Positions 15,826 to 62,927 of a stretch of DNA of 64,000 bases are shown in pieces. The position numbers and the translations under genes were made by a program. The stretch lies in assembly GCA_963705295.1 (NCBI GenBank), contig OY970065.1, positions 1,568,001-1,632,000 of the forward strand. Reading direction: 5' to 3'. The notes below the pieces were generated by a model. It was not told the origin of the DNA, searched no databases, and saw nothing but the letters and a program-made list of their open reading frames with translations. Source of the stretch: Parachlamydiales bacterium (GTDB lineage: Bacteria; Chlamydiota; Chlamydiia; Chlamydiales; Rhabdochlamydiaceae). How positions within the stretch are numbered: position 1 is the stretch's first letter; each line of letters starts with the position of its first letter.

Positions 15826-16898
15826 CAAGTCGCATCGAAACAGAGAAAGGTTCTCCAGAATCTCCCCAAAATGAGCATGCATCTCTAGTCGATTCAAATA
15901 TGATCCCAAAAAATCCTCCAGCTGCAGCAACTCCGATGCCCCCAGTTTCCTTTGAGAAGACCAAGGAAGATGCCACACGGATTGTTACAACACTTCTCGA
16001 TCTTTTGATCACCCAATTGAAGGGTAGAAAATATTCCCACGAACTCCGATTTTTAAAAGCCGTGCGTGCAAAAAAATCGGTCTTGAATGGAGTCACTATT
16101 TTGGAACTTAAAAATAATCTTCGATCGATCATCGAAGTTTTGGCGAGACACCTAAAAAATGTCGATTTGGAAGATCTGATCCCTGTTGAACGTTCCCTGG
16201 AAGGAAATCACCCTGTCAGAAAATTCTTCAACCAGATGGAACAACTGATCGAAGTCTATCAATATGAAGACGACGCCGATATTTCTGATGAAGTGACTGC
16301 CTCTGAAATGTTTTTAGATTGCTCTTCTGCGTGCATCTTAAATGGATTTATTGGAGAAGGAATTCGAATTGCAGAGAAGATTACGGACCGTATCGCAAAG
16401 ACCACGGCTTGGACACAGATTGTTCAAATTCTCTGTATCTTTGAATTTTATGAAAAAGCCTTAGAAATTGCATATAAAATTGGAGATGAATTTAAAAGCG
16501 AGAAGGGTTCGGCACTGCTTCAAATTGCCCTCTCCCTTTACGGAAAAAAACGACTGATCGATAGTTTATATGTCGCAAAGCAGATCCCCCATACACATTT
16601 TAGAGGCCTTATTTTTCAACCCCTCATCCATGCCTTTTTGGGTGAAGCCAACTATGAAAAAGCGATGGAATGTGTTCAGTTTCTACCCACCTATTCTCAG
16701 CAAAAATGTATGATGGAAATGATCTTGAGAGATCTCTGTCTCGCAGGTAAAATTGAAGAGTGCGATAAACTGATCACAGCTATCAAAGACCCTCGCATCC
16801 GATCTTTAACCGTGCGCGATTTTGAGCAAATCAAACTCCTCAATTTCTGCACTTCTGGCAGCTCCGACGAATTCGTCGAAATGACGACTAGTTATTAA
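15822..16898 (+). CDS. Hypothetical protein with TPR-like helical repeats
   Basis: ATGA overlap with the previous gene; Pro/Ser-rich N-terminus; repeated A..IA..I.D pattern. Confidence 0.7.
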   Translation: MTSRIETEKGSPESPQNEHASLVDSNMIPKNPPAAATPMPPVSFEKTKEDATRIVTTLLDLLITQLKGRKYSHELRFLKAVRAKKSVLNGVTILELKNNLRSIIEVLARHLKNVDLEDLIPVERSLEGNHPVRKFFNQMEQLIEVYQYEDDADISDEVTASEMFLDCSSACILNGFIGEGIRIAEKITDRIAKTTAWTQIVQILCIFEFYEKALEIAYKIGDEFKSEKGSALLQIALSLYGKKRLIDSLYVAKQIPHTHFRGLIFQPLIHAFLGEANYEKAMECVQFLPTYSQQKCMMEMILRDLCLAGKIEECDKLITAIKDPRIRSLTVRDFEQIKLLNFCTSGSSDEFVEMTTSY

Positions 16899-17055
16899 CG
16901 GGGCTGGTAAACAAGTGACAAGATGCGCTGCGAGGCAAAGCCAGATTGATTCTCGCGAGGAATAACATTCTTGAATACGAAGGATTCCGAGCGAGAATCG
17001 ATATGGCGAAGCCGCAGCAAGCAGGTTGTCACTTGTTTACCAGCCCCGTTAATAA
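16892..17055 (+). repeat. Nested palindromic element E1 (MITE/RPE-like)
   Basis: Perfect 30-bp terminal inverted repeat TTATTAACGGGGCTGGTAAACAAGTGACAA (16892-16921 / 17026-17055); inner 94 bp identical to E4. Confidence 0.93.
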
Positions 17056-17168
17056 TAAGAAGATTTACCACCGAGCACAGCTCCGAGTATGTGGAGTTAG
17101 GACGTATCTGAAAAATTTTTATTCACTAAAAAAAAGTTTCAGCATATCTTTTTTAAAAAGGAGATTTT

Positions 17169-19814
17169 ATGGATTTTAAAAGACAAGCAATCGGTTTCGG
17201 TATTTCACTAGCACTTGTCATCCCATGTGGGTTATGGGGAGAAAGCGTTCAGACAACGAATATAAAGACCCAATACGGTAAAAAGAAAAATAAAACTTCG
17301 GGCTCTCTTCAAGATCATCAGAAAAAGAAAAATATCTACGATTTCGTTGTAGTTGGAGCTGGCAATGCGGGATGTGTAATAGCTAAGCGTTTGAGTGAAA
17401 ACGGCAAATATTCCGTTTGTTTGCTCGAAGCTGGACGCGATGATGCCCGTTTGCCGGAGCTACTTCCTGAGCCTTCTTCTGCTGATGTGCCACAGCCTGG
17501 GGACTTTCACTGGGGACAATATGTTCGTGCGACACAGCTAGCAGGTGAGCTTACTAACCGTGGATTTGGACAGTGGTGGTTTTATCAAACAACAAATAGT
17601 CGGCCCAATAATGTAACAAGTACCAGTTACAAAAGGTATTCAGGCTTTGGAGGATGTACTTCACATAATAGTGGGGCTACTCTTCGAAACGCCCCTTATA
17701 ACTGGAACGAATGGGCAGCCCTTGGTCTTACTGAATGGAGCGGAGGTAGTGCGCCTCTTTATCTAGATAGTCCGCTTATTAAGTATTACAAGAAGATGGA
17801 AAATCGATCTCAGGCATTGTTTGGTACAGCTTTCAAATTTTATGATCCTTCTTTGCCTCCAGGAAGTCCGGGTGGTTTTGATCCGGCCTACTACGGGTTT
17901 GATGGGATGGTGCCCTTAAATCTAGATGATTCAGCATTAGCAGTAACATTGCTTGAAATTATTTTAACAACACCTTCTCTCGCTCGTTTTGGGTACCCGC
18001 CAAATCTTGTAGACTTTGACTATCCCCCAACAGCGGCTCTTGGAGGAGTTGGTTTTCAACAGGTAACCAATCTTTTTCAAATTGACGATTCAACGATTAC
18101 AATACCCGGAACGGCACCAGCTCCTGGTGATTTTTCCAACAATGTTCCTGTGTCTTTATACAACCCTTATGGGGATGTAGGATTCAAAGTCCCGGTAGAA
18201 TATCAGCGCTTAAACGACCCTACTCTTGATCCTTCAGCCTTATTCATTACGCAAAGATCTAGCGCGGCTAATACTTATCTCTATGCGGCTCAAAAAACAC
18301 GGAATGCCAATCTGAAGATCAAATCGGAAGTTTTGGTGACCAACTTGATCATGTCGGGAAAAAAGGCGAAGGGTGTCGAGTACTTAAAAGGTTGGAATAT
18401 CTATCAGACCGGACGCAATCCGAATACGATGGATGGAGGATATGGTGGAACGGTAGCTGATGCCAAGTTAAATGGTATTACTGCGCTAGAGAAGGGTAAA
18501 AAACAAGTGTATGCAAGAAAGGCTGTTATTCTCTGTGCAGGTGTTTACAACACCCCTCAGATCTTGATGCTTTCTGGTATTGGAAATAAGCGTGACTTGA
18601 AAGAAGTAGGAATTAAACCCATCCACCATTTACCGGGTGTAGGAAAGCATCTCATCGATGCTCAGGAGCTGTTTATATTTTGGCAGTCACCCACTTCCCT
18701 ACCTCCAAATAGTCTAGGTCAATTAGCGGCTTTCACAAATCCTACTGACTCCCCAAATGGGATTCCTCCAACTTTCGATATCAGTATTTCCAATATCCTC
18801 CCAGCTTTTGATCAAAATCTTGAATCGATAGATGAATTTGTTCAAAAATCATGGATAGGACTTCGCAGCCTTCCAGCAACCCTTAACGCAAATACACGGA
18901 ATGCTTTCGAAAATATCTTGTTGAATCCCTCAAACCCAACTGCAAATCCTGCTCCCATTCCCGTGACATTTGTGTCAAAAATATCGCCTATACCCCCAGA
19001 AACAGGTCCATGGTTGGTAACTTTCTCCATTCCTTCCTCAACTGTATCTCAAGGCGGGTACACCATCGCTGGAAATTCAAACCCCAACTATGATGGAAAG
19101 TTTACTGCGACGAACATTAGTGGCAACAACATTCCCGATGTGACTTCTATTACTCTTTCATATCCTTTAGATCCGGGTATCTTTGGCTCTGGAGAGACTA
19201 CGATCACGGGTGATCCAGCATTTTTACCTATCATGATATCACCGGATCAAGTCCTAGGAATACTTATCGAACAAGAAGAACATAATCGATCGGAAGGTTA
19301 CGTAAAACTCCAGTCATCCGATCCAACAGTTCCTCCCCTAATTTTTATGAATTATTTGAGTAATCCACGAGATTTTCGGGACTGGAAAAGTGTCATGATG
19401 AACACGGTTTTTCCGATTATGGAGCAACTACCAGCTTTTGGTCTTTTTAGTAACCTTTTGTGGCCGGCTCCAGCTGACATATTGAAACCAGGTTTTACAA
19501 CCTTCAGCGTGGCTAATGTCGATGATTCGCCTGGCGGAAGGTTAGACCAATTCCTACTCAATTATGTCGGTGGACACCATGCCATGGGAACATGCAAAAT
19601 GGGCACTTCTTGCGATCGAAAGGCCGTAGTCGATCAGCACGGCGCTGTCCACGGGATCAAGCACCTCTATATTGCGGATATGAGTGTGGTGCCCGTGAGT
19701 GTCCGCTGGCCTAATGGTACAGCCTATGTCATTGCGGAAAAAATCGCAGATGATATTTTGACCGCTTATTCTAGCGACAAGAAGAATTCAAAGCTTGAAA
19801 AGAGAAAAAAGTGA
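17169..19814 (+). CDS. GMC-family FAD oxidoreductase with signal peptide and insertions
   Basis: YDFVVVGAGNAGCVIAKRLSE, VILCAGVYNTPQILMLSGIG, LPGVGKHL, HHAMGTCKMG and IADMSVVP motifs. Confidence 0.93.
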   Translation: MDFKRQAIGFGISLALVIPCGLWGESVQTTNIKTQYGKKKNKTSGSLQDHQKKKNIYDFVVVGAGNAGCVIAKRLSENGKYSVCLLEAGRDDARLPELLPEPSSADVPQPGDFHWGQYVRATQLAGELTNRGFGQWWFYQTTNSRPNNVTSTSYKRYSGFGGCTSHNSGATLRNAPYNWNEWAALGLTEWSGGSAPLYLDSPLIKYYKKMENRSQALFGTAFKFYDPSLPPGSPGGFDPAYYGFDGMVPLNLDDSALAVTLLEIILTTPSLARFGYPPNLVDFDYPPTAALGGVGFQQVTNLFQIDDSTITIPGTAPAPGDFSNNVPVSLYNPYGDVGFKVPVEYQRLNDPTLDPSALFITQRSSAANTYLYAAQKTRNANLKIKSEVLVTNLIMSGKKAKGVEYLKGWNIYQTGRNPNTMDGGYGGTVADAKLNGITALEKGKKQVYARKAVILCAGVYNTPQILMLSGIGNKRDLKEVGIKPIHHLPGVGKHLIDAQELFIFWQSPTSLPPNSLGQLAAFTNPTDSPNGIPPTFDISISNILPAFDQNLESIDEFVQKSWIGLRSLPATLNANTRNAFENILLNPSNPTANPAPIPVTFVSKISPIPPETGPWLVTFSIPSSTVSQGGYTIAGNSNPNYDGKFTATNISGNNIPDVTSITLSYPLDPGIFGSGETTITGDPAFLPIMISPDQVLGILIEQEEHNRSEGYVKLQSSDPTVPPLIFMNYLSNPRDFRDWKSVMMNTVFPIMEQLPAFGLFSNLLWPAPADILKPGFTTFSVANVDDSPGGRLDQFLLNYVGGHHAMGTCKMGTSCDRKAVVDQHGAVHGIKHLYIADMSVVPVSVRWPNGTAYVIAEKIADDILTAYSSDKKNSKLEKRKK

Positions 19815-19857
19815 GTCATCGTAGCGATAACCAGTGAACAGTCCCTTCATTAATATC

Positions 19858-19900
19858 AAATTGGCTTTGTCTTCCTGGCGTATATTGTCTCTTTTTTGCC
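19858..19900 (-). repeat. Degenerate half of a palindromic element next to E2
   Basis: Reverse complement GGCAAAAAAGAGACAATATACGCCAGGAAGACAAAGCCAA joins the E5/E6 outer arm to an E1-type GGCAAAGCCA layer. Confidence 0.6.
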
Positions 19901-19905
19901 GCTCG

Positions 19906-20091
19906 TTATTAGCCCGACGGGCAAAAAGGTGACCCAAAGGGTGACAATATGCGTCAGCGAACTCCTGTCAGAGCGAAGCGTTAGCGGTCCGACCGACGAG
20001 GACCCCATCGATAGGTTAGGGCGAGGAGGAGGATCGATCTGGCAGGAGTGCAGCAAGCAGATTGTCACCTGTTTGCCTGTTGGGTTAATAA
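19906..20091 (+). repeat. Nested palindromic element E2
   Basis: TTATTAGCCCGACGGGCAAA...TTTGCCTGTTGGGTTAATAA arms with G-T pairs; core similar to E5/E6. Confidence 0.9.
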
Positions 20092-20121
20092 TCAACCCAT
20101 GAAAACTTTTATGGTTAGGTA

Positions 20122-21006: not shown

Positions 21007-21141
21007 ATTAACCATCATTCTAATCGGTTTTAGAGTTTTTTTCCAGCGAAACATCTGTAAAGTTAAAATTTTAATTTACATCCTTGCAGGAGAATAACCT
21101 GTTCAGGCAGAATGAGTCAAATTTTTTGGGTGAGTTATACT

Positions 21142-23028: not shown

Positions 23029-23052
23029 TAAGGAAAGAGGGATAGGATTTTT

Positions 23053-23146
23053 AACCACCGAGCACACCGAGATCACCGAGGCGGCTTCGCCGCAAAAGAA
23101 TCTCTTCCTCTGCATTTTCTCGGTGATCTCGGTGTGCTCGGTGGTT
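23053..23146. repeat. REP-like palindrome built from 9-mer units
   Basis: Perfect 28-bp inverted repeat (23053-23080 / 23119-23146), each arm three copies of NNCACCGAG; inner GCGGC-TTC-GCCGC hairpin. Confidence 0.9.
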
Positions 23147-23766: not shown

Positions 23767-25406
23767 TTATTTTGCTGGTCTCTACTCTTTTTTCTCTCGA
23801 TCGAGATCATGTCGCCTATCTGATCCATGCGCAAGACATCGAATCCTCGATCAACCTCTATGAAACCTATAAAAAAGAGCTTGGACACCACGATTTCGAG
23901 ATTTTGATCCAGCTGGCGACCCATATTCTGCAAGAAGGGATTCGGAGTCCCGACCTCACCATTCAGCTCTCCAGCCTGTATGGAACGGCCCTTGCCACCC
24001 TTTCATCCTCTTTTGACATTCTCGAGGAAGGGATCAAAAGTCAAAATTTTGAGACTCAGATGGCGGCGATTCAACTCCTTGCCCATCTCCAAGATGATCG
24101 GGGCGATGAACTCCTCACCAAGGCGATGGCCTCCCCTTTTCTCATGGCCCGGATCGAAGCCGGTTTCCATCTCGCTGAGCGAAAACATCGGAAAGCGACG
24201 GGACACATCGAAGCCCTCATGTACAAACTCCCCGAGGAGCTCTGGTTTTATTTTCCACAATTTTTTGCACTGATTGGAACCCAAGATTCGATGGAGATGT
24301 TGAAAAAATTGATGGAAGATCCGTTTTCAGTGACCCGTGTCGAAGCCATTCTCTGCGCGGCTCGGTTTGGAAGGGACGACCTTTTGCCCAAAATTCGTGC
24401 CCATGCCACCCATCTCCACCATGCAGAACAAGAAGCCGCTGCAACAGCACTGGGGCTGCTCAAAGATTCGAAATCGATCCCCCAACTTAAAACTTTAACC
24501 CAATCGACCTCCATCCCCGTAAAACTCGCAGCATATCGATCCCTTTATCTCCTCGGCGATACTCAGGCTCTTTTTCCGATCTTTGAACTGGCCAAACAAG
24601 CCGACATCTTTGCTATTTCCCTTTTAGGCGAACTCCCCGGAGGAGAAGACGTTTTAGCCTCTCTCTTGAAACATCCGAGTATCCACGTCCGGTTTAATGC
24701 AGCGTTCTCTCTCTTGCAGCGTCGGGACAGCCGCGCCGCATCTGCTATCGAAGAATTTCTTCTGCTCGACACCAAAGACCTCGGATATCAACCCCATTTT
24801 TCGATTGGACATTCGATCACCGCATGGAAAGTGGTTCCTTCCCTCCAACAAAACATGAAAAATGTCCACTTTGATTTGGAAGCCGTTTCACTGCAACTCC
24901 GTGAACAAATGTTGGCTGGATGCTTAGAACTTCCTGAAAAAGAATTTCTTTCGGTCACCGAAAAGGTTTTTCAGCACCACGAACTCGATCTTATCCCCCT
25001 TGTCGTCCAACTGCTGGAAAATCACAAAACTGAAGAAAGCCTCAAACTCCTCAAAAAACACGCCGACCATGCCGGCGTCCCCCTCATCCGGATGTATTGC
25101 ACACTCGCCCTCTTCCGTCTCAAACAAGACGGACCGTACGAAGCGAGACTCCGTTCATGGATCTCTCACGTACAAACCCATGAGATGGTTCGTTTCCGGA
25201 CCTCTCTCCCCTGGCATCTTCGAAAAAAGAACTCGACCCATGAGCTCAACCCCGAAGAAAGCACCCGCCTCCTCCTAGAATCGTACCAAGCCCTTTCAGA
25301 CCGACATGATGAAAAAGGAATCGAAATTCTCCTCCGTGGAATCAAAGAAGGGAATATCAAGAATCGGTATGCTTTAGCTGGTCTTTTGATCCACACGTTG
25401 CAGTGA
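23739..25406 (+). CDS. HEAT-repeat protein with signal peptide
   Basis: Repeated R.EA..ALG pattern; N-terminal hydrophobic signal; follows maf as in other chlamydiae. Confidence 0.85.
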   Translation: MGFFQKLSLIILLVSTLFSLDRDHVAYLIHAQDIESSINLYETYKKELGHHDFEILIQLATHILQEGIRSPDLTIQLSSLYGTALATLSSSFDILEEGIKSQNFETQMAAIQLLAHLQDDRGDELLTKAMASPFLMARIEAGFHLAERKHRKATGHIEALMYKLPEELWFYFPQFFALIGTQDSMEMLKKLMEDPFSVTRVEAILCAARFGRDDLLPKIRAHATHLHHAEQEAAATALGLLKDSKSIPQLKTLTQSTSIPVKLAAYRSLYLLGDTQALFPIFELAKQADIFAISLLGELPGGEDVLASLLKHPSIHVRFNAAFSLLQRRDSRAASAIEEFLLLDTKDLGYQPHFSIGHSITAWKVVPSLQQNMKNVHFDLEAVSLQLREQMLAGCLELPEKEFLSVTEKVFQHHELDLIPLVVQLLENHKTEESLKLLKKHADHAGVPLIRMYCTLALFRLKQDGPYEARLRSWISHVQTHEMVRFRTSLPWHLRKKNSTHELNPEESTRLLLESYQALSDRHDEKGIEILLRGIKEGNIKNRYALAGLLIHTLQ

Positions 25407-26825: not shown

Positions 26826-26838
26826 TTTAATCCTGCCT

Positions 26839-28125: not shown

Positions 28126-28142
28126 AATTTACCTATGATTTA

Positions 28143-29561: not shown

Positions 29562-29625
29562 ATTTAGAATGATATTATACTTTATTTTTAAAATAAAATG
29601 TTAATTAATTACAAACATTTAAAAA

Positions 29626-30852: not shown

Positions 30853-30918
30853 TAGTGAATAATATAACAAAATAATTCAAATCATACAAACAATTGTAAA
30901 TATCTCATATTTAGACGA

Positions 30919-38007: not shown

Positions 38008-38079
38008 GCCGAGGAGGAGGATCGATTTGGCTTTGCCTAGCGGCGCATATTGTCACTTGTTTACCAGCCCCGTTAATAA
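38008..38079. repeat. Truncated chimeric palindromic element E3
   Basis: 38050-38079 identical to the E1 right arm; 38008-38026 GCCGAGGAGGAGGATCGAT matches the E6 core. Confidence 0.88.
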
Positions 38080-42817: not shown

Positions 42818-42892
42818 ACCCAAGAGTTTATACCTCGGGCCCGATAAAAGAAAAGGGTACTTTTTATTAAAATAATGTTAAAATGTCTCAAT

Positions 42893-44950
42893 ATGTCTTT
42901 AATTGTTAGATCAATGCCCGAAGAACTATGGGTATATATTTTTAGTTATACAGATGTTCAAACAAGAAATGCATCTAGTTTGAGTTGTAAAATATTTGCT
43001 AGAGTTATGAGAGAATTTGTTCGATCGGTTTATTTACCCTCGGATGATCGTCATCTTCAGAAATTTCTTTCTAGGTTCCCTCCACACGTTAAAAGAATTT
43101 TCTTTGGCAGTTGGAGTTGTAAGAGAGTCGCTGCGCTTCTTTCGGAACCAGAAGTTCAAAAAGTCGAAATGTTATCGCTTGTTGCACTGAATGGGCTAGA
43201 GGAAGAAGATCTTTTATCAAAAGCTATTTTAAAATTAACATCGTTAAGAATATTAAAGATCGTATCCTCTAATAATGTAGGTGTTTGCATTCATCCCTCT
43301 CTTCATTTGAGGAGTTTGATTCTAGAAAATTGTTATCCTCTTAGAATCGCGCTGTTTCCACCTTCACTTGAACATCTCAGTATCCATGATGTTCCAAAAT
43401 CGGGCTTACCAACTCTGACAAACTTATCTAAACTTCAACTCCTCCGCGATGAACAGAACCTTTATCCCGAATATCAAGGTACAAGGTACACCTCTAAAAC
43501 GTTGGCTTCCGGAGATTTAAAAACAATAGAGTCGTTATTCAATCAAGGCGCAGATCCCAATACTGCTCCACTGCCTATACTGGGCGATCATGCACGTTTA
43601 GCTTTATTCATCAAAAATGGAGCTAATCTTAGAATTCAAGATCTCGAAGATGCAATCAATAAACCTTGTTTCGCATGTGTGTCTTTATTATTGAATGGAG
43701 GAGCTCCCTGCAATGATGTCAATCGTCAAGGGAACACTCCCTTACATCAAGCAGTTCAACAGAGTCTTAGTAATATTGCTCACTTACTTATCAGAAATGG
43801 AGCCTATGTTCGAGCTACAAACGCCAAATATGAAACTCCTTTGCACGCCGCTGCTTCCAATGGGGATACTGCTTGCGGAGCTTTGTTAGTCAGTCATGGC
43901 GCCGATTTGAATGCTCGAGCTATCCATAAATGGTCTCCTTTGCATAAAGCGGCGGAAAATGGTCAAGGGGACTTTGCAAATTTTCTATTGGAGAAAGGTG
44001 CGGATATCCATGCAAGAGATGACATGCGTGCTACTCCTCTTCACCGTGCAGCCCTTAAAGGTCATGTGAGTGTAGCGAGATTATTAGTGAGCAAAGGGGC
44101 TTCGATGGATGCTGTTGATAAAAAAAATTCCACTCCTTTGCATGTGGCAATACAGCATGGCCATGTTGCATGTGCGACTTTCCTTGTAAATCAAGGGGCT
44201 AATATCAAGGCTCTTAATTTGGAAAATATGACACCTTTGCATTATACCTACCATTCCAAGGATGATACCTTGCCGTTATTGCTCCTTAGCAAAGGTGCAG
44301 ACATGCATGCAAAAAATGCGAAAGGTGAAACTTCTTTACATCTGTCCGTCGCTTATGGTTCCAGAACACGCGTAAGCCTCATGCTCGATCAGGGAGCCGA
44401 TATTCATGCTCAAAATCATCTCAATGAAACCGTCTTGCATTACCTTGTCAGGAGAGACTCTGTCCATTTTAAACGACCCCTTTTAGAATTACTTGTGGAA
44501 AGAGGAGCGAATATCAATGCTACAAATCATGAAGGCAAAACACCTTTGCAAATTGCTAGAGATAAAAAACTCAAATGTCTTCCATATCTCTTACATGTAA
44601 AAACAGCTCTAGAAAAAGTTGATGCCGTCGGTAGAACCTCTTTACACCTTGCAGCGGCCCAAGGGGATCAAACCCAGGTTCGCCTGCTTTTGAGCAGAGG
44701 ATCCCCTATTGATGCCATCGATCATTTTCATGAAACTCCTCTCCATTTAGCAGCCACCGAGGGTCGTGATGAATGTGTCGCTTTACTCCTTGAAAAAGGT
44801 GCAAACCTACAATCAAAAAATGTCATGGACCTCACTCCTTTAGAAGTGGCAATGCTTCATCAAAAAGAAAAATGTATCGAACTACTTACCAAAGAAGAAA
44901 GGAGAATTTCTCAAACGAAACGGAAATTTATTAACCCAATGGTCAAATAG
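42893..44950 (+). CDS. F-box, LRR and long ankyrin-repeat protein
   Basis: MPEELWVYIFSY...CKIF F-box; LRSLILENC LRR; many TPLH.A ankyrin repeats. Confidence 0.92.
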   Translation: MSLIVRSMPEELWVYIFSYTDVQTRNASSLSCKIFARVMREFVRSVYLPSDDRHLQKFLSRFPPHVKRIFFGSWSCKRVAALLSEPEVQKVEMLSLVALNGLEEEDLLSKAILKLTSLRILKIVSSNNVGVCIHPSLHLRSLILENCYPLRIALFPPSLEHLSIHDVPKSGLPTLTNLSKLQLLRDEQNLYPEYQGTRYTSKTLASGDLKTIESLFNQGADPNTAPLPILGDHARLALFIKNGANLRIQDLEDAINKPCFACVSLLLNGGAPCNDVNRQGNTPLHQAVQQSLSNIAHLLIRNGAYVRATNAKYETPLHAAASNGDTACGALLVSHGADLNARAIHKWSPLHKAAENGQGDFANFLLEKGADIHARDDMRATPLHRAALKGHVSVARLLVSKGASMDAVDKKNSTPLHVAIQHGHVACATFLVNQGANIKALNLENMTPLHYTYHSKDDTLPLLLLSKGADMHAKNAKGETSLHLSVAYGSRTRVSLMLDQGADIHAQNHLNETVLHYLVRRDSVHFKRPLLELLVERGANINATNHEGKTPLQIARDKKLKCLPYLLHVKTALEKVDAVGRTSLHLAAAQGDQTQVRLLLSRGSPIDAIDHFHETPLHLAATEGRDECVALLLEKGANLQSKNVMDLTPLEVAMLHQKEKCIELLTKEERRISQTKRKFINPMVK

Positions 44951-45093
44951 GTGACAAAAGGGCTTAGCGAGGCAAAGCCAGATTGATTCTCGCGAGGAAT
45001 AACATTCTTGAATACGAAGGATTCCGAGCGAGAATCGATATGGCGAAGCCGCAGCAAGCATCTTTGTCGCCTATTTGATCAGCGGGTTAATAC
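44928..45093 (+). repeat. Nested palindromic element E4
   Basis: Core 44967-45060 identical to E1 16930-17023, but the outer stem differs (GGTCAAATAGGTGACAAA / TTTGTCGCCTATTTGATC); contains the stop codons of both flanking genes. Confidence 0.93.
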
Positions 45094-46249: not shown

Positions 46250-46332
46250 TATCAAGCATATCCTATGAATCATGTTTTTGGCGTTGTCTACACAGTTGCC
46301 GGAAAAACATGATTCATAGGATATGCTTGATA
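46250..46332. repeat. Perfect 30-bp inverted repeat with 23-nt loop
   Basis: TATCAAGCATATCCTATGAATCATGTTTTT (46250-46279) / AAAAACATGATTCATAGGATATGCTTGATA (46303-46332). Confidence 0.92.
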
Positions 46333-53322: not shown

Positions 53323-54749
53323 ATGGGTTGCTCTTCAATCCATTTCACGACATCCCCAAAATGGCTTACTTGTGCAACTTCGATCGCAAAACGTTTGAGT
53401 AAGGAATCCCATCGCCCAGTTTGCACAAGCGCTTTAATGCACTCCAAATGGCCATTTGCTGCAGCTGCGAGAATGGGTTGATAAAAAAAATACTCGTTAG
53501 CAGAAGGCAACCTCAAAAGAAATTGAATGACAGGGAGATGTCCCTCTCTGGCAGCTACCAAGAGTGCTTTCAAATGAGTTTGACGATCTATATTCTCATC
53601 TCCTACCAATTCCTCGACTATCGGAAGGTAGCCTCTTTCGCATGCAGCAATGACCCATGATTGAAATATTTTTAAATTAAAAAAACCTAGCGTGGCTTTG
53701 ACTACAACAGAAAGACACTTATTTTTTATGGCGCAAAGAACAGCCTCCTTTAGAACATCATCATTAGAATGCAAAAGCCTCATCGTCATAAACGTTTTAG
53801 CTCTGCCTCTTAGACTCGATGCCCAAAGGGCCATATCGTAGACATCCAGTTCTAAACCCATCGTGAAAAGATATTGGATGAAACGATAATCCCCTTCCCC
53901 CGCAGCCCAAATAAGAACAAGGCCTCTGTAATAGATATCGGGGAGCTGCTTTTCAAAAATTTCTCTCACCCTCTCAAAATCGCCGTTTTCGACAGCTCTC
54001 AGCAACTCTAAACCTTGTGCCGCTTCAGGAGTTTTGTCATTTTTAGAAAGCAACTCATATATTTCTAAATTTCCTCCCACCGCTGCCCATTTCCTTGCCA
54101 TTCTTAACGTTTCAGGAGTGAAGGATGAGTGCTCCATCAGAAAATCAACAACTTCTAAATGTCCTTCTCTGGCCGCAATAAAAAGAGATGCATCCAATTT
54201 TAATAGGTTGTAGGAATGGAAGAGTTGTATTAAGGACAAATTTCCACTTTCAATAACTCTAGGGGGACAACCCTTACAAGCTTCGATCCCACCGATTTCT
54301 TCTAGAAAGAACCGAGCAGCAGCTGTGTTTCCTCTTTTAGTAGCCTTGACCACCACGGTATCCAAAATAAGCTCGGCTTTTTGGGTTTTTAGAAAATCGA
54401 ACACAGCCCTCAATCTGGGCCAAAGCCGATCGATCTTCAAGCATGTTTCAAGAATCCGTTTAAAGTTGGGGTTATCTTTAATATCACTTGAATAGTCATT
54501 GATGCCATTCAATAAACTCACCGTCTCTCCAAAGAATCTCTTTACAGCCCCCTTGTCCGTCTCGGAGGGCAAAAGTTCAATCCCTCTTCGCTGGACCATC
54601 GCTTTCCAATATTCGGCATTTGGTTCACATGCAGCCTGGAAAAAGAATTTGCAACATTTGCTAAACCTTACCAGATCGTCAAGGGGTAGAAACGTCGTGA
54701 CGCGTTGAGTTATTTCCGTAGGAAGGGTCCAATTGCATTCTACTGTCAT
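53319..54749 (-). CDS. F-box plus ankyrin protein, tandem copy 2
   Basis: Highly similar to copy 1; C-terminal tail DVVKWIEEQPI identical to copy 3. Confidence 0.9.
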   Translation of the reverse strand: MTVECNWTLPTEITQRVTTFLPLDDLVRFSKCCKFFFQAACEPNAEYWKAMVQRRGIELLPSETDKGAVKRFFGETVSLLNGINDYSSDIKDNPNFKRILETCLKIDRLWPRLRAVFDFLKTQKAELILDTVVVKATKRGNTAAARFFLEEIGGIEACKGCPPRVIESGNLSLIQLFHSYNLLKLDASLFIAAREGHLEVVDFLMEHSSFTPETLRMARKWAAVGGNLEIYELLSKNDKTPEAAQGLELLRAVENGDFERVREIFEKQLPDIYYRGLVLIWAAGEGDYRFIQYLFTMGLELDVYDMALWASSLRGRAKTFMTMRLLHSNDDVLKEAVLCAIKNKCLSVVVKATLGFFNLKIFQSWVIAACERGYLPIVEELVGDENIDRQTHLKALLVAAREGHLPVIQFLLRLPSANEYFFYQPILAAAANGHLECIKALVQTGRWDSLLKRFAIEVAQVSHFGDVVKWIEEQPI

Positions 54750-56125
54750 ATGGGTTGCTCTTCAATCCATTTCACGACATCTGCAAAGTGACCAGCGCGC
54801 GCAGCATCGAGTGTGGTATCTTTACTTAGCTGATCGACAGGCCGTAGTTTCCAGAGCTCTTGGACGCACAGCAAATGACCACCTGCAGCAGCTGCTTCGA
54901 TAAGTTCATAAAGATAGTTCCGATCGAGATATATGCTGAGATATTGTATGAGATGCAAATGCCCCTCCCCTGCTGCAAGGAGAATTGCTTTATAGCCTAG
55001 TTCTCTTCTCGGGCCCCCCATTTGTTCAACGAATTTCTCGATCATGGGAAGATGACCGAGTTTAGAAGCTTCTAAAAACCACGCTTCATAGGTCTTATAA
55101 GAAATAGAATGAGAATATCGAGAAGCAATATCGATAATACCCTGGTGATTTTTCCTAATTGCGAAAAGGACAGCTTCATTCAATGCATAAACATCCAGAC
55201 GACGAGATACTAGAACTTTAAAAGTCTCAACATTTCCTTGGAAGCCGGCTGCCAATAGTGCAAAATAGTTGTCATCCTCTCCCATGTTCGGAAAGAAAGA
55301 TAAATTCCCCTTTCCCGCTGCTAAAATAAATGCAAGACTTTTGTAGTAGGGAGAAGCTTTTTCAAAAAGATCTGCTGCTTTTCTATTATTACAAATAATC
55401 GATTCGATTAACTTCAAACCGTGCAGATCTTCGGGCGCTGTATCCCTTTCAGATAGTCTTTGGTAAATATCCAGACGGCCTCCGACCATCGCCCATTTTT
55501 TAATGCTTGCCTTTAAGGTCTTTCCCATACTCATCTGTTGCAAGATAAAATCGACAATTGCCAAATGTCCTTCTCTGGCAGCTATTTCAAGAGCCCGGTC
55601 TAAATGGATCGATCCGTGAGAGTAGCAGAGTTGAACCATGGATAGATTTCCCCTTTCGGCAGCAAAATCGGAGCATTCGGGACAACCTCGCTCTAAAAAC
55701 AATCTAAAAACACCAGTATTTCCTCGCCGGATCGCTTCTTCGCACACCTCTCTTGCATGCGCACAAAACGTTTCTGTATTAATAAGCTCGACGACGCGGT
55801 TGAATCGGGTCCAAAGTTGAGGAATCACTAAAGCCTCTCGGAGGGAAGACCTCCATTCAATACCCTCAGTTGTTTCAGTGGGTTTTTTATGGAGCACATT
55901 GGCACAACTGAAGAGTTCTCGGAAAATCCGCTGGACGGCCTGAAGAGGCTTTTCATCGGGTCGTAGCTCGATCCCTTTTTGTGCGAGAAAGGCGGAACAA
56001 TACCCGTTAGAAGCCTGCTGAAAAAAACGGCAACATTGAGCGAATTTTGCTAAATCGTGCGGCTCAAGAAAAGATATAACTTGTTGAAGTTGTTTTAATT
56101 GAAGAACTTGATTAATTACTGACAT
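54746..56125 (-). CDS. F-box plus ankyrin protein, diverged copy 3
   Basis: VISFLEPHDLAKFAQCCRFF F-box; AAREGHL and AAAGGHL ankyrin motifs; GGAG SD. Confidence 0.88.
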   Translation of the reverse strand: MSVINQVLQLKQLQQVISFLEPHDLAKFAQCCRFFQQASNGYCSAFLAQKGIELRPDEKPLQAVQRIFRELFSCANVLHKKPTETTEGIEWRSSLREALVIPQLWTRFNRVVELINTETFCAHAREVCEEAIRRGNTGVFRLFLERGCPECSDFAAERGNLSMVQLCYSHGSIHLDRALEIAAREGHLAIVDFILQQMSMGKTLKASIKKWAMVGGRLDIYQRLSERDTAPEDLHGLKLIESIICNNRKAADLFEKASPYYKSLAFILAAGKGNLSFFPNMGEDDNYFALLAAGFQGNVETFKVLVSRRLDVYALNEAVLFAIRKNHQGIIDIASRYSHSISYKTYEAWFLEASKLGHLPMIEKFVEQMGGPRRELGYKAILLAAGEGHLHLIQYLSIYLDRNYLYELIEAAAAGGHLLCVQELWKLRPVDQLSKDTTLDAARAGHFADVVKWIEEQPI

Positions 56126-56205: not shown

Positions 56206-56380
56206 TTATTAACCCTCCACGCAAAAAAGAGACAACCTGCTGGCTGCACCCCTGACAGATCGATCCTCCTCCTCGGCCTAGCCTATCGGCTATGATCCTC
56301 GTCGGTCGGACCGCTGACGCTTCGATCTGACAGGGGTTCGCTTACGCATCTTGTCTCTTTTTTGCCTATCGGGTTAATAG
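56206..56380 (-). repeat. Nested palindromic element E5
   Basis: Near-identical reverse complement of E6; supplies the last codons and TAG of the upstream minus-strand gene. Confidence 0.93.
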
Positions 56381-58282
56381 GATAAGATCGAGTGAAGGGT
56401 TAGGATAGATTTCTGAAATGATGTCCCAATAATTTTGAACAAGGTCTAGGGGGACGTGATCTTGGAGATGTTTAAGTTCAAAATGATAGTCTGCGGTATG
56501 TCCTTGCTTTTGATGATGAAATTGATACGAAATGACTCCGTTATCAAATGCCGCTTCTTCTGAATCACGACTCCATTCATGGAATGGATTTTCAATATGG
56601 ATATGTTCTTCGACCCACCGTGGATAGGCTAAATCGTAGGGAGAAGTCCGCTCGTTATCGAGGCTATCGTCAAAATACCTCTCGAGGGTGTGGGAATAAA
56701 TCTGTAAAGATTTTCGGCGGATGGGGATTTTATAAGACTCTTCGACGGTGACAACATTTTTCTCTCGATCATCTGAGAAGGAAGGGGGCTGGAGAGGAGT
56801 CGCTCCCCTATAAGAAGCTTGAGCGGCTTCTAAGAAATCCTGTGTTAATTTTTTAAGACCTCTGTTTTCAATCCGCTGCCGCATATATTCTGCTTCAAAT
56901 CCATAATAATGCCGTTTCATATCGAGAGAAGCTATATCGGGTGCTGTGAGAGTCAAGGTGGTGAAAATTTGAGTCGGTTTTTCGAGAATGATCTTTGGAA
57001 GAGGGATGAGCCGTGTGGTTTGATCCGAAATCATGAGTCCCCAGTCATATTCAGGAAAACAGTGGTTTGGCAGGGAACTTCCTTGCCGCGTGATGACAGG
57101 ATCGACATAAAAAACGGTTTCGCCCATCGTTATTTGCAAAACGACATGATTGAAAACCTTCGATGCTGGGAGAATATGAGGTAGTTTTCTTCCCCTCTCT
57201 GTATTCACCAAAACAGGCACCGATGCAATGTCCATCATCTTGAGGAGTGCGTGGAGAAGAAACACCTTATCTTTACAATCTCCAAACCGTTTCTCAAAAA
57301 CGATACCGGGTTCTCTTGGAATAAAACCTCCGAGATCATCTTCAAACCCAAGATATTTTACCTCGTCTTGAACAAAACGGAGAGCCAGCCCCGCTTGCTC
57401 AAATGGATTTTTTCCTTTCCAATGAGCGACCTTCTCTTGCATGGCCTGAGTGGCAAAATTGCCAGGCAATGTAAAGAAAGGAACCGTTTGCTGAGCCACT
57501 TCGTGCCAATTTTTATATTGGGAAAGTTGGATGCGAGCATAAGGGACATACCACGATGGTTCCCAATGATACCTTGTCACAGCTTCAGTCTCTAAGGCCT
57601 GCCAAGTCCATTCGTGAAGGTTAGGTGCAAGGTCGACGATCGTAGGCTCGATTGAGGTATTGAACGATTTTATGGAAAAAGTCTTATCGGGATCGATCAA
57701 AAGACGGTAAACCATTTTCTCAATAGAAACCTCATCCTGCATTCTAAATGAATCGGTTAAATGATTCGAAAACAGCGGGTGCTCGCCGACTGAGGTATAC
57801 GCATATTCGATGATATCTCCGATTCGAATGTCATCTAGAAAATAGACCAACGTCACATCCCCTTCATACAGATTATTCTCGAGGTCTTCTTCTCGTTGAA
57901 GCAATTTAGACCGGGCGGTTTTTAATCGATCCAAGCATGCACCATTCCTGAGAACCTGGAGCTGATGGACAACTAATTGTTGATAGCTGGGATCAAATTC
58001 AATCTGGAGATTGGTAAAACTCTCGACAGCGGTTTGATCGAGAAGCTTAATGACTCTATGGATATAATTTGATTTTTCTTCCCAATTTCGTTGAGTATCG
58101 ACCAAAAGATGTTGAGAGTGGATTTGTGAAGGCTTAACAGGCGCATCAGCATTGAAACTGCACGGCTTCACCCATGCGGCTTCAGGCCCTACCGAATATT
58201 TACCCTCACTTGCGAGAAGTAAAAAAGGGAAACAAATTAGAAGGATAAATTTATCTAACTTCAAAGTCAAAGTGGGATCCAT
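56366..58282 (-). CDS. DUF3857 plus transglutaminase-like domain protein
   Basis: DIRIGDIIEYAY; GDCKDK (Cys), FNHVV (His) and YVDP (Asp); signal-like N-terminus. Confidence 0.88.
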   Translation of the reverse strand: MDPTLTLKLDKFILLICFPFLLLASEGKYSVGPEAAWVKPCSFNADAPVKPSQIHSQHLLVDTQRNWEEKSNYIHRVIKLLDQTAVESFTNLQIEFDPSYQQLVVHQLQVLRNGACLDRLKTARSKLLQREEDLENNLYEGDVTLVYFLDDIRIGDIIEYAYTSVGEHPLFSNHLTDSFRMQDEVSIEKMVYRLLIDPDKTFSIKSFNTSIEPTIVDLAPNLHEWTWQALETEAVTRYHWEPSWYVPYARIQLSQYKNWHEVAQQTVPFFTLPGNFATQAMQEKVAHWKGKNPFEQAGLALRFVQDEVKYLGFEDDLGGFIPREPGIVFEKRFGDCKDKVFLLHALLKMMDIASVPVLVNTERGRKLPHILPASKVFNHVVLQITMGETVFYVDPVITRQGSSLPNHCFPEYDWGLMISDQTTRLIPLPKIILEKPTQIFTTLTLTAPDIASLDMKRHYYGFEAEYMRQRIENRGLKKLTQDFLEAAQASYRGATPLQPPSFSDDREKNVVTVEESYKIPIRRKSLQIYSHTLERYFDDSLDNERTSPYDLAYPRWVEEHIHIENPFHEWSRDSEEAAFDNGVISYQFHHQKQGHTADYHFELKHLQDHVPLDLVQNYWDIISEIYPNPSLDLILLTR

Positions 58283-59219
58283 TTTTGTGAACAAGAATAA
58301 TTTTACGAGACCCTTTTTCATTGAATACGGGGTCAAGACCTTTCATCCTTTCACCGTTATTGAAACACCGCTCGATTTCTAATCGGTAGTTTGGGTAGAG
58401 GCGACTAAAGGTATAGATTTCAGCTACGGAGGCAAAAAATCGATTCATATCCGCGCGGGTTAAATATGCCCCGTATTTCAGATCAGGCTGCTCAAAAAAA
58501 CTGAGGACCGTTTCTTCTTCTTCTAATTCTTTGAGCAGGGTCGTCACCTCACGCCCTTCTGAAAAAAGAAGGTCGTAGGTTGCACGCCTACCATTGAATT
58601 CTATTTTTTTTGCAGCAACATAAGCCTCGATGGCATCATCGATATATTTTTGAAGACGGGCATCACAGGTGAGATTCTTTTTCATTTCATCGACGACGAG
58701 CTGTCTTAAACCGTGGTGATCCATCTTTAGTTTTCGATCGAGCATCTGCATTGCCCGGCACAAAGAATGGAATAAACAACTCCCATCAGGAGGAACGGTG
58801 ATCAAGAAAAGCCCTGCGTGTTGAGCCCTAAGTCCATTCAAATTGTTTTCACAATTCTCGACCATCGCATGCGCCGCTAGATTTTCTGGATCGCGTAAAA
58901 TGGTGCATTTGAACCGGGTGATTTTCTCAGAAAGATGCTTTCCTCTCTCCTTATTCAGCTCTCCTAAATGCTCCAGAATATACTCAAAATCTGTATTGAT
59001 ATCTTCGGCGAGTCTACGCACGGCTCTTACCAAAGCAGGCAGGGGCGGCTCTGCTACGATCTTCCGACGAGCCCCCAAAAATAAACCGAGGCCAAAAATG
59101 GCCAACCCAAAAACAACCAGCGCCACCCGATGAACCCGGTCCGTCACACTTGGAAAAGGGTTTATCCGTTTAAAAACCCTTACCGTAATATCCAGATAGA
59201 GAGGAGGTTGCACCGTCAT
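58251..59219 (-). CDS. OTU-family deubiquitinase-like protein with N-terminal TM helix
   Basis: VPPDGSCLFHSL (Asp/Cys box) and NGSHFD (His box); TM segment VALVVFGLAIFGLGLFLG. Confidence 0.85.
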   Translation of the reverse strand: MTVQPPLYLDITVRVFKRINPFPSVTDRVHRVALVVFGLAIFGLGLFLGARRKIVAEPPLPALVRAVRRLAEDINTDFEYILEHLGELNKERGKHLSEKITRFKCTILRDPENLAAHAMVENCENNLNGLRAQHAGLFLITVPPDGSCLFHSLCRAMQMLDRKLKMDHHGLRQLVVDEMKKNLTCDARLQKYIDDAIEAYVAAKKIEFNGRRATYDLLFSEGREVTTLLKELEEEETVLSFFEQPDLKYGAYLTRADMNRFFASVAEIYTFSRLYPNYRLEIERCFNNGERMKGLDPVFNEKGSRKIILVHKNGSHFDFEVR

Positions 59220-59287
59220 GCCGAAAATTCTACCGTCTGGAGTAATATTTATCGATGGGAAAATTTGATTATGTTAAAATAATTCTT

Positions 59288-60625
59288 ATGACATTTTCAG
59301 CGTTACCTCTTGAATTGACCCAAAAGGTCATGGAGCATGTACCCCAGAAAGATAAATACAGCGCGGCTTTTGCTTGTTGGGAATTTCAGAGGGCTATTTT
59401 CGGAGACGGCGGCCAATATTGGCGTGATTTCCTTAAAGAAAGAGACATCCAGATTCTTACAGATCAGACGCCGAAGCAACGGGTTCTTCAATATTGCCAA
59501 AAAGTGATACGCGTTTTCTTTCAACTTTTTGCAAATATTATAGACAATCCAGGTACGAGAAGAGCGAGTCGATTAGAGGTTCTGAAAATTAAAAATCTCG
59601 GCATGCAATTTTCAACAGTGATGGGCTATTTCAGAATAATGCCTCTATTTCGAGGTGCAGCGTTTGCTCTAGGTGTCAAATTAAGAGACCGCGCTTTGCT
59701 ATATGATATGCGTCGATTAGGGCCAATCGAAAGCATCTGCTATCAGAAAGCTTTTACTCTAGCTGCAAGAAATGGAGATCTTCCGATCGTAAAGGCGATG
59801 TGTGCCTCTGAAGTTCTCACATGTACCGATTTTCTCATTGCCATCGAAAAAGCCTCCCTACAGGGTCAGATGGAAGTTGTCCAATTCCTTTTTCAAAAGA
59901 TAAAACCTACGAATCTAGATGAAAAAAATGCCGTCATTCTCACTGCGGCCCTCGTTGGACAAACAAAATTTTTGGAAGAATTCATGACCAAAGAAGGATT
60001 TGTCAACCCTGTCGGATATGCATTTTTAGATGCCGTGCGAAACGAAGATCTCGATTCCGTAAGAGGGCAATTGCAGGAAAATCGAGACCTTCTTGATGGG
60101 TTTTCTACTCTTGCTTTACTCTGGAGTGTCTGGAAAGGAAATACCGATCTTTTCGTATTACTTCTGGACCATGCTGCCTCATTTGATGCAACTGCCGTCG
60201 CGGCAGCTATTGTAGGCAGAGGCAATCTTCGGATGTTTCATCATTTCATTCATCGACATCCCTTATCGATATGGAGTCGACATCTCAACTTTAACCTGCT
60301 TCTCGATAATATCCCTCATCTCGGCATTGCTAAAGAACTACTCCAAAATGGTCCTCCCTTGATAGATGATTTTTTCCCCGGCACTTTAAATACGGCTGCT
60401 TACCTGGGATTTCTTGATATTTTAAAGTTACTTCTCCAACACCACACCTTTACCCCCCTAGAGCTTGGACATGCCCTCGAAATGGCAACCATGGGTGGAC
60501 ATCTCGCCTGCGTGCAACTCGTTTTGGAAAAAGGAAATATCGATCCCGACTTCCTAGAACTCTCCCAACTAGCCGCCAAAGTCAGCAACCACACCGAAAT
60601 TCTCCAAAAACTAACTCCTTCATAA
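59288..60625 (+). CDS. F-box-like plus ankyrin protein
   Basis: FSALPLELTQKVM...ACWEF F-box; AARNGDL and ATMGGHLACV ankyrin motifs. Confidence 0.85.
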   Translation: MTFSALPLELTQKVMEHVPQKDKYSAAFACWEFQRAIFGDGGQYWRDFLKERDIQILTDQTPKQRVLQYCQKVIRVFFQLFANIIDNPGTRRASRLEVLKIKNLGMQFSTVMGYFRIMPLFRGAAFALGVKLRDRALLYDMRRLGPIESICYQKAFTLAARNGDLPIVKAMCASEVLTCTDFLIAIEKASLQGQMEVVQFLFQKIKPTNLDEKNAVILTAALVGQTKFLEEFMTKEGFVNPVGYAFLDAVRNEDLDSVRGQLQENRDLLDGFSTLALLWSVWKGNTDLFVLLLDHAASFDATAVAAAIVGRGNLRMFHHFIHRHPLSIWSRHLNFNLLLDNIPHLGIAKELLQNGPPLIDDFFPGTLNTAAYLGFLDILKLLLQHHTFTPLELGHALEMATMGGHLACVQLVLEKGNIDPDFLELSQLAAKVSNHTEILQKLTPS

Positions 60626-60696
60626 TGAAATAGGCTATAAAACTGCCCTTTTTTAAAATGTAGCTTTTTAAACTTTTCTAATTTAAAATAGTTGCA

Positions 60697-62751
60697 ATGA
60701 GTTTAGAATCACGAATACTAGCAGTAAAAGTCGCAACACGTAATTTATCTGATTATTTTAAATCAAAAGAAAGAGAAAACTTACAAGCAATCGTATATGA
60801 GATTCTTAATCAGCCTGAAGCTTCTCGGCCAGAGGAACTTATAAATAGGCTAATCCTTCATATTAGAAATGGTAATGAAGGCTCGTTGGACCGAGCCATT
60901 ATGTTATTTAAAGCATTAGGTAATTATTTAGGGTCTCGAGCTCCTCAATTAAACGAAACCATCCTCTTAAAAGAAAAAATTGTCCCAAAAGTCGTTCTGC
61001 GCCTAGAACTCCCTTATTTTACTGAACATTTAACAACCTTGGATTGTGATGAAATCAGTGATCCTGCTGCTCTCGCTGAACTTGCTGCTTTCTTTAATAC
61101 CGGAAATTGGAATACATCGGGGATTTCTTTGGAAGCACTGTTAGAGATTAGAATATTCTCGATCGCATGGTTCTCCAGAACTCTCCAAGAAATGTCGTTA
61201 AGTTCAATTAAAAGTAGAATAGACCGCTCTAATATTCAGCTGTTATTGGGTGTTTGGACATTTGCCTTCACAAACAATGATAGCGAATTAAAGAGAATGT
61301 TATTAACGCAATATCCGAAAGATCTTGAACTCTGTGATTTTTCCGAAATATCCGATGAGACAGAATCTTTAGCAGTAAAAGCAATGAAGCTCAGCGACGA
61401 TTTGGGAAAAGCAAGTAGAAATGGTTCTGATCCTTTATTATCTTTTCCAAAAACTTCACCCCAATTTCTCACATTATTAGAGAGGATTTTCCAGGATAGG
61501 TACAAAATCGGTCATCTGATGTGCGAGTGCAATGATCTCGCGGATGCTGAAAAATTGGCACACCTCTTAGATGTCTATGGTATCTCTTCCGATTTGGTAG
61601 GGTTTACTTTAAGAACTGACAATGATCGAGTATTACAACACCTTATCCCACATATTTTAAGAACCAAAATCAAAACCTTCATCATCCATAGTAAAATAGA
61701 CATGAAATTGGGATTAAAGAGTCTTGGAGAAGCTTTAGAACACCATACAACTCTAGAAACTCTGCGGATTTTTTGTAGCTCTATATTGAATCTGGAAGGG
61801 GCCCTTTCTTTTACAACGAGTTTGCAAAGAAATCAGGGGTTAAGTGAACTCTATCTCGGAGGATCCATCGATCATTCAGATATTATAATAACCTTGGCAA
61901 GATCCATCCAAAACCATCCTAAACTTCAATGTGTTGATATTGCAGGAAGTTCATCTCTAGGTTATGTGGAAATCTCTGATTGGGCTGAAATGATCGATCG
62001 GAATAAAAGTCTAAGAAGTATTGAAATGGGCATGAAAATGGATGCTTGGGCAAAAGTGGATGCTCTCGCAAGAGCTTTTAGAAATAATTCGACTGTCGAG
62101 ACTTTAAATTTATTTTTAGACCCCTATGATGCAAGAGTCGATAAACTTGATCCAAGAGTCGATAAGCTTTTTAGAGAAGGTTTAGCTCAAAATCGGACTC
62201 TGCGGACATTGAAAATTCGTATGACTCAACAGACCGCCTTTCTTATGATTGGGGGAATTGCCGAAGTTTTGAAAACCAAAACCTGTTGTCTTCGCACCCT
62301 TATCTTAAATTCGAACCAGATAGGAGATGAAAATGGAGCTATTCTTATACAAGCTCTCCATAGAAATACTTCTCTTCAAACATTGGATTTAGCTGATACG
62401 GATATTGGTACAGCAACGATCGAAGCTCTCGCTGAGGTTTTAAAAACGGAACATCCACTTCAAAATTTGGATCTCCGTTACAACAAACTTAGGGATCAAC
62501 ATTTGAGAATTTTGGGATCAGCGCTTCAAAATGTTCGTTCTTTATCCGATTTAAAGATGGAACATAAATTTTCATTTTCTACACTTGCTGACTTCGCTCG
62601 TCAACTAAAAAAGAATTCGTCTTTAATTTATATTCAACTGGACCATCTTTCTTTTAGAGAGGGTCAAAGAGAAGAGTTAACAGCAATTTTATCCGAAAGT
62701 GGCTTTGCTGTGGAAGCAACCCTCACCTTGAGAAGAAAACTTTATATTTAA
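60697..62751 (+). CDS. BTB/BACK-like plus RNI-type LRR protein
   Basis: PYF...DEISDPAALAELAAFFNTG...LLEI (BTB-like); repeated N.(S/T)L..L.L..N.IGDE LRRs. Confidence 0.75.
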   Translation: MSLESRILAVKVATRNLSDYFKSKERENLQAIVYEILNQPEASRPEELINRLILHIRNGNEGSLDRAIMLFKALGNYLGSRAPQLNETILLKEKIVPKVVLRLELPYFTEHLTTLDCDEISDPAALAELAAFFNTGNWNTSGISLEALLEIRIFSIAWFSRTLQEMSLSSIKSRIDRSNIQLLLGVWTFAFTNNDSELKRMLLTQYPKDLELCDFSEISDETESLAVKAMKLSDDLGKASRNGSDPLLSFPKTSPQFLTLLERIFQDRYKIGHLMCECNDLADAEKLAHLLDVYGISSDLVGFTLRTDNDRVLQHLIPHILRTKIKTFIIHSKIDMKLGLKSLGEALEHHTTLETLRIFCSSILNLEGALSFTTSLQRNQGLSELYLGGSIDHSDIIITLARSIQNHPKLQCVDIAGSSSLGYVEISDWAEMIDRNKSLRSIEMGMKMDAWAKVDALARAFRNNSTVETLNLFLDPYDARVDKLDPRVDKLFREGLAQNRTLRTLKIRMTQQTAFLMIGGIAEVLKTKTCCLRTLILNSNQIGDENGAILIQALHRNTSLQTLDLADTDIGTATIEALAEVLKTEHPLQNLDLRYNKLRDQHLRILGSALQNVRSLSDLKMEHKFSFSTLADFARQLKKNSSLIYIQLDHLSFREGQREELTAILSESGFAVEATLTLRRKLYI

Positions 62752-62752
62752 A

Positions 62753-62927
62753 CTATTAACCCGATACGCAAAAAAGAGACAAGATGCGTAAGCGAACCCC
62801 TGTCAGATCGAAGCGTCAGCGGTCCGACCGACGAGGACCATAGCCGATAGGCTAGGCCGAGGAGGAGGATCGATCTGTCAGGGGTGCAGCCAGCAGGTTG
62901 TCTCTTTTTTGCGTATCGGGTTAATAA
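62753..62927 (+). repeat. Nested palindromic element E6
   Basis: Perfect 29-bp inverted repeat TATTAACCCGATACGCAAAAAAGAGACAA (62754-62782 / 62898-62926). Confidence 0.93.

Follow-up and report, generated by a model that had tools for sequence, protein, structure and literature searches.

Palindromic elements of a Rhabdochlamydiaceae genome as probable IS630-type MITEs with an exchangeable inner hairpin

The palindromic repeats described here are, with high probability, non-autonomous MITEs that have the ends of IS630 elements, duplicate a TA target and carry an inner hairpin as exchangeable cargo, and we predict that they are mobilised in trans by a DDE transposase of the IS630 family. The original prediction of a non-autonomous element agrees with the lack of transposase coding in any copy and with the IS630-type ends.

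Results

Copies in the window and in the genome

The window is a stretch of 64,000 nucleotides from a genome of 2.13 Mb that consists of one contig and is 94.7% complete (G000). Five full copies and two fragments of the repeat had been predicted in the window, and all seven were recovered; the boundaries of the full copies each moved inward by one base per side when they were set from TA to TA. E1 (16893..17054, + strand) is a full copy of 162 bp from TA to TA with a core of type T1. Its left end (16893..16921, +) spans 29 bp, in which the duplicated TA is followed by an IS630-type terminal inverted repeat, and provides the TAA stop codon for the ORF 15807-16898. The inner hairpin module of E1 (16922..17025, +) is composed of a middle stem with purine-rich internal loops and the core T1 and is not derived from an IS, and the right end (17026..17054, +) is again a terminal inverted repeat with TA, perfectly complementary to the left end. 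E2 (19907..20090, +) is a full copy with core T2 and a 12-bp duplication in its left arm. It apparently inserted into an older element, a decayed half copy (19855..19908, -) whose terminal T-TA-A would have been the target, with the TA shared between the two. The other fragment, E3 (38017..38078, -), is a half copy in which an E1-type arm is joined to a partial T2-like inner module. E4 (44929..45092, +) is a full copy with core T1 and asymmetric arms unlike those of E1, and the stop codons of both convergent neighbour genes lie within it. E5 (56207..56379, -), in which the ORF 56366-58336 terminates, is a full copy with core T2 whose arms form an asymmetric pair of class D, and E6 (62754..62926, +) is a full copy with core T2 whose symmetric (left/left) arms derive from the D pair. 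As anticipated, E1 and E4 contain an identical 94-nt core within different arms, E2, E5 and E6 share a second core type, and no transposase was found among the 38 of the 81 window ORFs that were scanned.

The genome-wide collection that had been recommended yielded about 8 fragments and 73 full-length copies, of which 41 have core T1, 29 have core T2 and three have other cores. The copies are 120-209 bp long, do not code for a transposase, and have the same frame at both ends, TA-YTARC followed by 15 variable bases and RWKRCAA. Rfam, also recommended for comparison, contained no matching family (best score 17.9 bits against a threshold of 72). Plasmids had no DNA match to E2 or to the B-family copy described below, and neither the arm pattern nor a relative of the transposase was found in viral contigs.

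Of 401 genomes of the order, 28, chiefly from two families, have the arm pattern, which is absent from all six genomes of the same genus; the reversed pattern, used as a control, had one match. The match in G253 is probably due to chance. The family appears to be spread patchily and its expansion in G000 looks recent, because this genome has by far the most arms (95) among the 401 and the same-genus genomes have none. The MITE-richest genomes are G000, G357, G369, G291 and G282. Relatives contribute 47 A-type copies (that is, copies with the ends described so far), which include further cores and small inserted hairpins.

Outer arms and IS630 ends

Comparison with related genomes shows that the outer 29 bp correspond to the termini of complete IS630 elements that form one clade. 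In G268, the arm pattern occurs as an inverted pair, with two identical arms facing each other 1.3 kb apart, and the DNA between them is a broken IS630 element with an inverted partial copy. In G315 and G210, each lone arm forms the left terminus of a complete IS630 element, with an ORF of 348 and 345 aa, respectively. Full elements with these ends are 1.1 kb long and encode a transposase of 345-348 aa; they occur in related genomes and not in G000, so that the search for a transposase bounded by the same termini, as originally suggested, succeeded in relatives. The transposases of G315 and G210 score 207 and 209 bits with NF033545 (cut-off 100), have HTH and DDE_3 domains, and also match PF13358. 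The first catalytic aspartate of the G315 transposase is replaced by alanine, and the three catalytic motifs are intact in the transposases of G210 and locus L083. The IS of G315, a genome of the same family, is also carried by a Chlamydiae bacterium record.

A protein search found relatives of this transposase (clade A) in 10 of the 401 genomes, and further clade-A ends were added from genome and metagenome scans. The clade-A sample comprises 23 distinct IS ends, with transposases 66-100% identical to that of G315; among the sampled loci, L082 duplicates L070, L084 duplicates L068, and L105/L106 and L112/L113 each represent one transposase. The 23 IS ends agree in their consensus with 132 distinct MITE arms and vary in the same columns as these (Spearman 0.84), and the near-invariant arm columns 2, 4, 5, 18, 19, 21, 26 and 27 agree with the IS ends. 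The 66 distinct arms of G000 lie 4.2 mismatches from real IS ends, compared with 5.1 for column-shuffled arms, and none of 2000 shuffles came as close. Several MITE arm classes differ by 0-2 bases (some by 0-1) from a particular IS end, and some arm classes of G000 are 5-8 bases from the closest sampled one. The end variants track the subclades of the transposase tree. With regard to a possible origin of both arms from IS left ends, MITE arms end in AA, as those ends do, at 133 of 144, and over arm positions 1-27 the closest IS end was a left end for 48 arms, a right end for 35, and a tie for 61.

No IS630 element was found in G000, at 94.7% completeness, with PF13358, a protein query or a clade profile, and the clade-A transposase query had no match in any of the five MITE-richest genomes. 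The MITE family and an IS630 partner were seen together on one metagenome contig only (L114), where the IS630 adjoins the MITE at a shared TA and the far flank does not cleanly continue the MITE end. At present, the family looks orphaned in G000. Among plasmid relatives of the transposase, none exceeds 50% identity.

Insertion sites

TA occurs at both ends in 61 of the 69 copies with clear ends. The base outside the TA is T at 97 of 138 ends, and T-TA-A is found at 31 of the 69 sites, compared with about 11% in the genome. No duplication extends beyond the TA, and a target duplication of 4 bp or longer was rejected. The duplication of TA, which had been suspected from the conserved ends, is shown by a copy (G000:1098991-1099151) that lies in frame inside an AbiEii gene. 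When this copy is excised to a single TA, the gene aligns without a gap at the site to 14 of 14 homologues (50-74% identical), taken as the best 14 among 51 genomes that matched, with G094 left unscored; when it is excised with both TAs, the reading frame is broken. We therefore conclude that the target is TA, preferably T-TA-A, and that it is duplicated on insertion, a conclusion that rests on one empty site reconstructed through homologues and not from a sister strain. Paralogues and other loci examined provided an empty site for none of 69 copies, the genes around E1 and E2 in same-genus genomes (about 70% identical) provided no usable one, and an empty-site search among homologues of an arylsulfotransferase returned 0 of 60.

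Four copies lie inside continuing reading frames, and the length of each minus 2 is divisible by 3. Many other copies contain or adjoin a stop codon; of 65 relations to gene ends, 43 fall within 30 bp. The orientation of the copies showed no bias relative to upstream genes (20 vs 23) and no significant bias relative to the replichore (27 vs 42, p 0.09).

Exchange of layers and a second family of ends

Among the 35 T1 copies examined, divergence is 3% in the core and 38% in the arms. A 72-nt core sample is identical in 18 copies, among which 13 different left arms occur and, conversely, a single identical 29-bp arm surrounds T1 in three and T2 in five perfectly paired copies. The layers are thus interchangeable, as the original prediction proposed, with the same arm around either core and the same core in many arms.

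The exchange extends to a second family of ends, B, which are 35 bp long and occur in 17 of the 401 genomes; the sole B-family copy of G000 is at 1253553-1253725. The interiors of 20 of 23 B copies match the profile of the A interiors, compared with none of 460 shuffles. B ends flank two-ORF IS630 elements in G308 and G369, the transposase of which shows 26% identity with its clade-A counterpart over 108 residues. The inner-module profile scored no higher than 5.5 bits in any of 14 IS loci, which speaks against a simple internal-deletion derivative of the IS, and in G000 it found the module only within these MITEs and their fragments. Hybrids that combine an A-type with a B-type end were not seen. 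The comparisons show that the interior, as judged from these profiles, forms a hairpin module of its own, in which cores can be exchanged and which is carried between the ends of two distant IS630 groups. We consider this interior to be cargo because it was not found in the 14 IS loci and is carried with two distant transposase systems, and the hairpin seems to outlive and to swap the transposases that move it.

Pairing of the arms and folding

The outer stems were predicted to differ between copies and yet remain paired. At the 15 variable positions, we found 1.2 mismatches between the arms within a copy and 5.8 between copies, a difference reached in none of 100,000 permutations; the comparison covers 63 of the 73 copies, with 10 copies that have indels left out, and treats related copies with no correction for phylogeny. 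The pairing is therefore real, but the selection for structure over sequence that had been proposed to explain it is not supported for the outer stems: the arms are transposase ends whose columns match those of IS630 ends, and the excess of G.T over A.C in the shared arm mismatches of G000 (10 vs 1) was not replicated in relatives (17:15 and 6:9), so that we rejected wobble bias as a sign of selection. Other observations point to copying between the arms. Asymmetric founder arm pairs are accompanied by left/left and right/right derivatives, as in E5 and E6, and the interior of one copy has been symmetrised, its inner right half being the inverse of its left half. In 13 of 66 copies, both arms contain changes that are missing from the closest other arm, and several arm mismatches disappear together, in either direction, as copying predicts. 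Template switching has been described as a route by which inverted repeats are perfected (PMC5941160). Descent from several IS630 relatives, together with arm-to-arm copying, explains the paired changes better than structural selection does. Covariation cannot separate selection from arm copying in this family, and covariation in palindromic repeats in general should be read with caution, as it can stem from arm copying and inheritance and not from selection for RNA structure.

Taken by themselves, the inner parts have better folds than their shuffled versions (z -5.5 and -3.5). In 67 of 69 copies here, and in 44 of 47 and 20 of 23 copies from relatives, the purine-rich strand is the one with the more stable fold, and the internal loops are conserved across the A and B families; because of these two features, the structure of the inner module may be under selection.

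Discussion

Judged by sequence, the element is an IS630-type MITE: it is short, non-coding and present in high copy number, shares its terminal inverted repeats with autonomous IS630 elements, and would work like RUP and ERIC/MITEPlu5. It belongs to a known kind because the enzyme predicted to mobilise it is an IS630 transposase. Its distinctive feature is that a single hairpin module seems to have switched transposase systems. Mobilisation in trans by IS630 relatives that have since been lost, together with a renewal of the ends, is what we infer from the distribution of ends and transposases, and the route by which cores and ends are exchanged and an aid of the hairpin to transposition are of the same inferred status.

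A possible course of events is as follows. Several related IS630 elements would have passed through the lineage, each leaving its end variant on the resident hairpin. Every MITE end contains T-TA-A, the preferred target, and an IS630 could insert there, after which a deletion between short end motifs common to both would leave the MITE with the new end; alternatively, the end could be captured by short-patch exchange. Template switching would then copy one arm to the other, making both arms alike, and the matching transposase would amplify the new version before being lost itself. More tentatively, and with less than even confidence, we suggest that the inner hairpin is a long-lived selfish unit that has neither an enzyme nor fixed ends, captures the ends of invading IS630 elements, and is kept because, thanks to its fold, such a short element transposes more readily, for example through cruciform extrusion that joins both ends in place of an IHF bend. 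If this is true, ERIC, BOX, RPE and similar TA-ended palindromes would be parallel cases of a hairpin cargo with borrowed IS ends.

The exchange of layers may also be read in the opposite direction, with the arms as ancient remnants that have stayed in place, among which ectopic gene conversion, acting through the middle motifs that are conserved, has spread the T1 and T2 cores. We regard this as possible but doubtful. It would account for cores that are far more uniform than the arms, for core-type switches that map to the GATGCG and GCAGC motifs on either side (as in the copy at 1899858), and for the extra small hairpins inserted into the module in A and B families alike. However, identical units of arm and core occur at many sites, the same-genus genomes lack the arm pattern, and copies lie in frame in otherwise intact genes, all of which argue for recent transposition of whole units, and the A and B ends are left unexplained unless a capture step is added. 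Core conversion is compatible with an IS630 origin but reverses the direction of exchange, and both processes may have operated. Less probable still is that selection for a fold, as RNA or single-stranded DNA, maintains the entire palindrome with its arms, so that sequence hardly matters. Arms that differ and remain paired, the better folding of the purine-rich strand in nearly all copies, the internal loops conserved across families and the G.T excess in G000 would all be expected. Nevertheless, the near-invariant arm columns coincide with the IS ends, mismatches vanish several at once and in either direction as under copying, the G.T bias failed in relatives, and the copies show neither an orientation bias to upstream genes nor a significant one to the replichore.

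REP and REPIN sequences are doublets of short tagged REPs, which also flank a RAYT gene, and they are not known to duplicate a TA. A REPIN-like element moved by an HUH enzyme (RAYT/Y1), or attC-like sites for a tyrosine recombinase, would resemble the present family in its long imperfect hairpins with strand-asymmetric loops and in its AAC...GTT ends, which often overlap stop codons, and G000 does contain one decayed Y1 fragment (631488-631646). We consider this reading very improbable, since the ends are those of IS630, the TA is duplicated, the copies are dispersed in both orientations and form no arrays, and the Y1 fragment has no flanking copies; we have rejected membership in REP/REPIN on the same grounds. 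Mobilisation in trans by an IS630 transposase is the reading that we prefer.

Several described families are close in kind. RUP is a short MITE with IS630-like ends, a TA target and a partner, IS630-Spn1 (PMC2229807, PMC3049150), but at 107 bp it is AT-rich and described as simple, whereas the interior of the present element is a layered hairpin of 100-150 bp with exchangeable cores, found with the ends of two distant IS630 groups. ERIC (MITEEc1, MITEPlu5) is described as a strongly folding palindrome of about 125 bp that targets and duplicates TA and has ends akin to an IS630 subtype (PMC6267812). One E. coli ERIC copy that we compared is similar in build, an extended hairpin of which one strand has purine-rich internal loops, and did not match the inner-module profile, so that homology was rejected for this copy; the ends also differ, and those of the present family match IS ends to 0-2 bases in several classes, beyond a short terminal motif. 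BOX, linked to ISSpn2, is modular, has IS-like ends and a target duplication, and often supplies the stop codon of a gene (PMC3049150), but its modules stand in series with a variable number of boxB, whereas the modules here are nested symmetric layers. In the literature covered, mostly outside subscription journals, we found no account of the family or of a core common to IS630 MITE families.

For RUP, BOX, ERIC and RPE, the link to a transposase has so far rested on partial similarity of the ends. In the present family, the ends closely match intact IS630 elements, so that a direct assay is possible. Moreover, the role of the hairpin is testable, because the same interior with the ends of two IS630 groups (26% alike) separates ends from cargo.

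RPE are palindromic, about 150 bp long, and inserted in frame into genes of an intracellular bacterium (PMC10969869). The descriptive likeness to them that the original prediction drew stands for the in-frame insertions, with at least four internal copies; as a difference, most copies here are intergenic or at gene ends, and a further difference is that an autonomous partner has been identified for the chlamydial MITEs. The MITE copies give chlamydial genes stop codons and in-frame inserts of 53-57 residues.

Genes and inner modules

Four genes of the 2.13-Mb genome to which the window belongs carry an in-frame MITE insert, which spans 53–57 codons across the four: an AbiEii gene (G000:C1:1098341-1099369), an NB-ARC/TPR-type gene (G000:C1:1201102-1203858), an unnamed gene (G000:C1:1282870-1285068) and an arylsulfotransferase gene (G000:C1:1453194-1455107).

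The inner module, the hairpin cargo found inside both the A-type ends (29 bp) and the family-B ends (35 bp), is enclosed in one case, L024 (G243:C14, approximately 8850-9000), by a third end type unlike either. Small additional hairpins of 40–60 nt occur as insertions within the module at L255, L056, L280, L066 and L199, and both families are represented. The palindrome at G000:C1:924036-924198, upstream of an aldo/keto reductase sequence, has family-B-like ends of 35 bp and shares the T3 central hairpin. The single-contig genome G235 holds 34 family-B arms and approximately 15 near-identical copies of another IS630 (L286 and others), and comparison of the ends of this multicopy element with the family-B ends gave no match.

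Other palindromes and gene setting

Thirty base pairs past the full MITE copy E6, a short palindrome with TA ends (window 62957-63032) has ends unlike those of the E6 family; in G194 (L002), similar ends surround a copy of the A type, and in G211 (L025) they lie close to another such copy. Two further palindromes of the window, at 23053-23146 and 46250-46332, belong to two different dispersed families, both distinct from the E1–E6 MITE family, each with approximately 5–10 similar copies in the genome. Outside the window, a third dispersed family reaches up to approximately 29 similar copies, and a 168-bp family has approximately five.

Tandem ankyrin, F-box, LRR and OTU-like genes, which are typical of the host-directed proteins of environmental chlamydiae, occupy window positions 25374-30870, 42875-46100, 51892-56125 and 58251-62751. 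The genomes G195 and G124 appear to lack, in the interval that separates the tgt region from the RDD gene, the segment of approximately 7 kb that contains the MITE copies E1 and E2 (window approximately 12800-20100).
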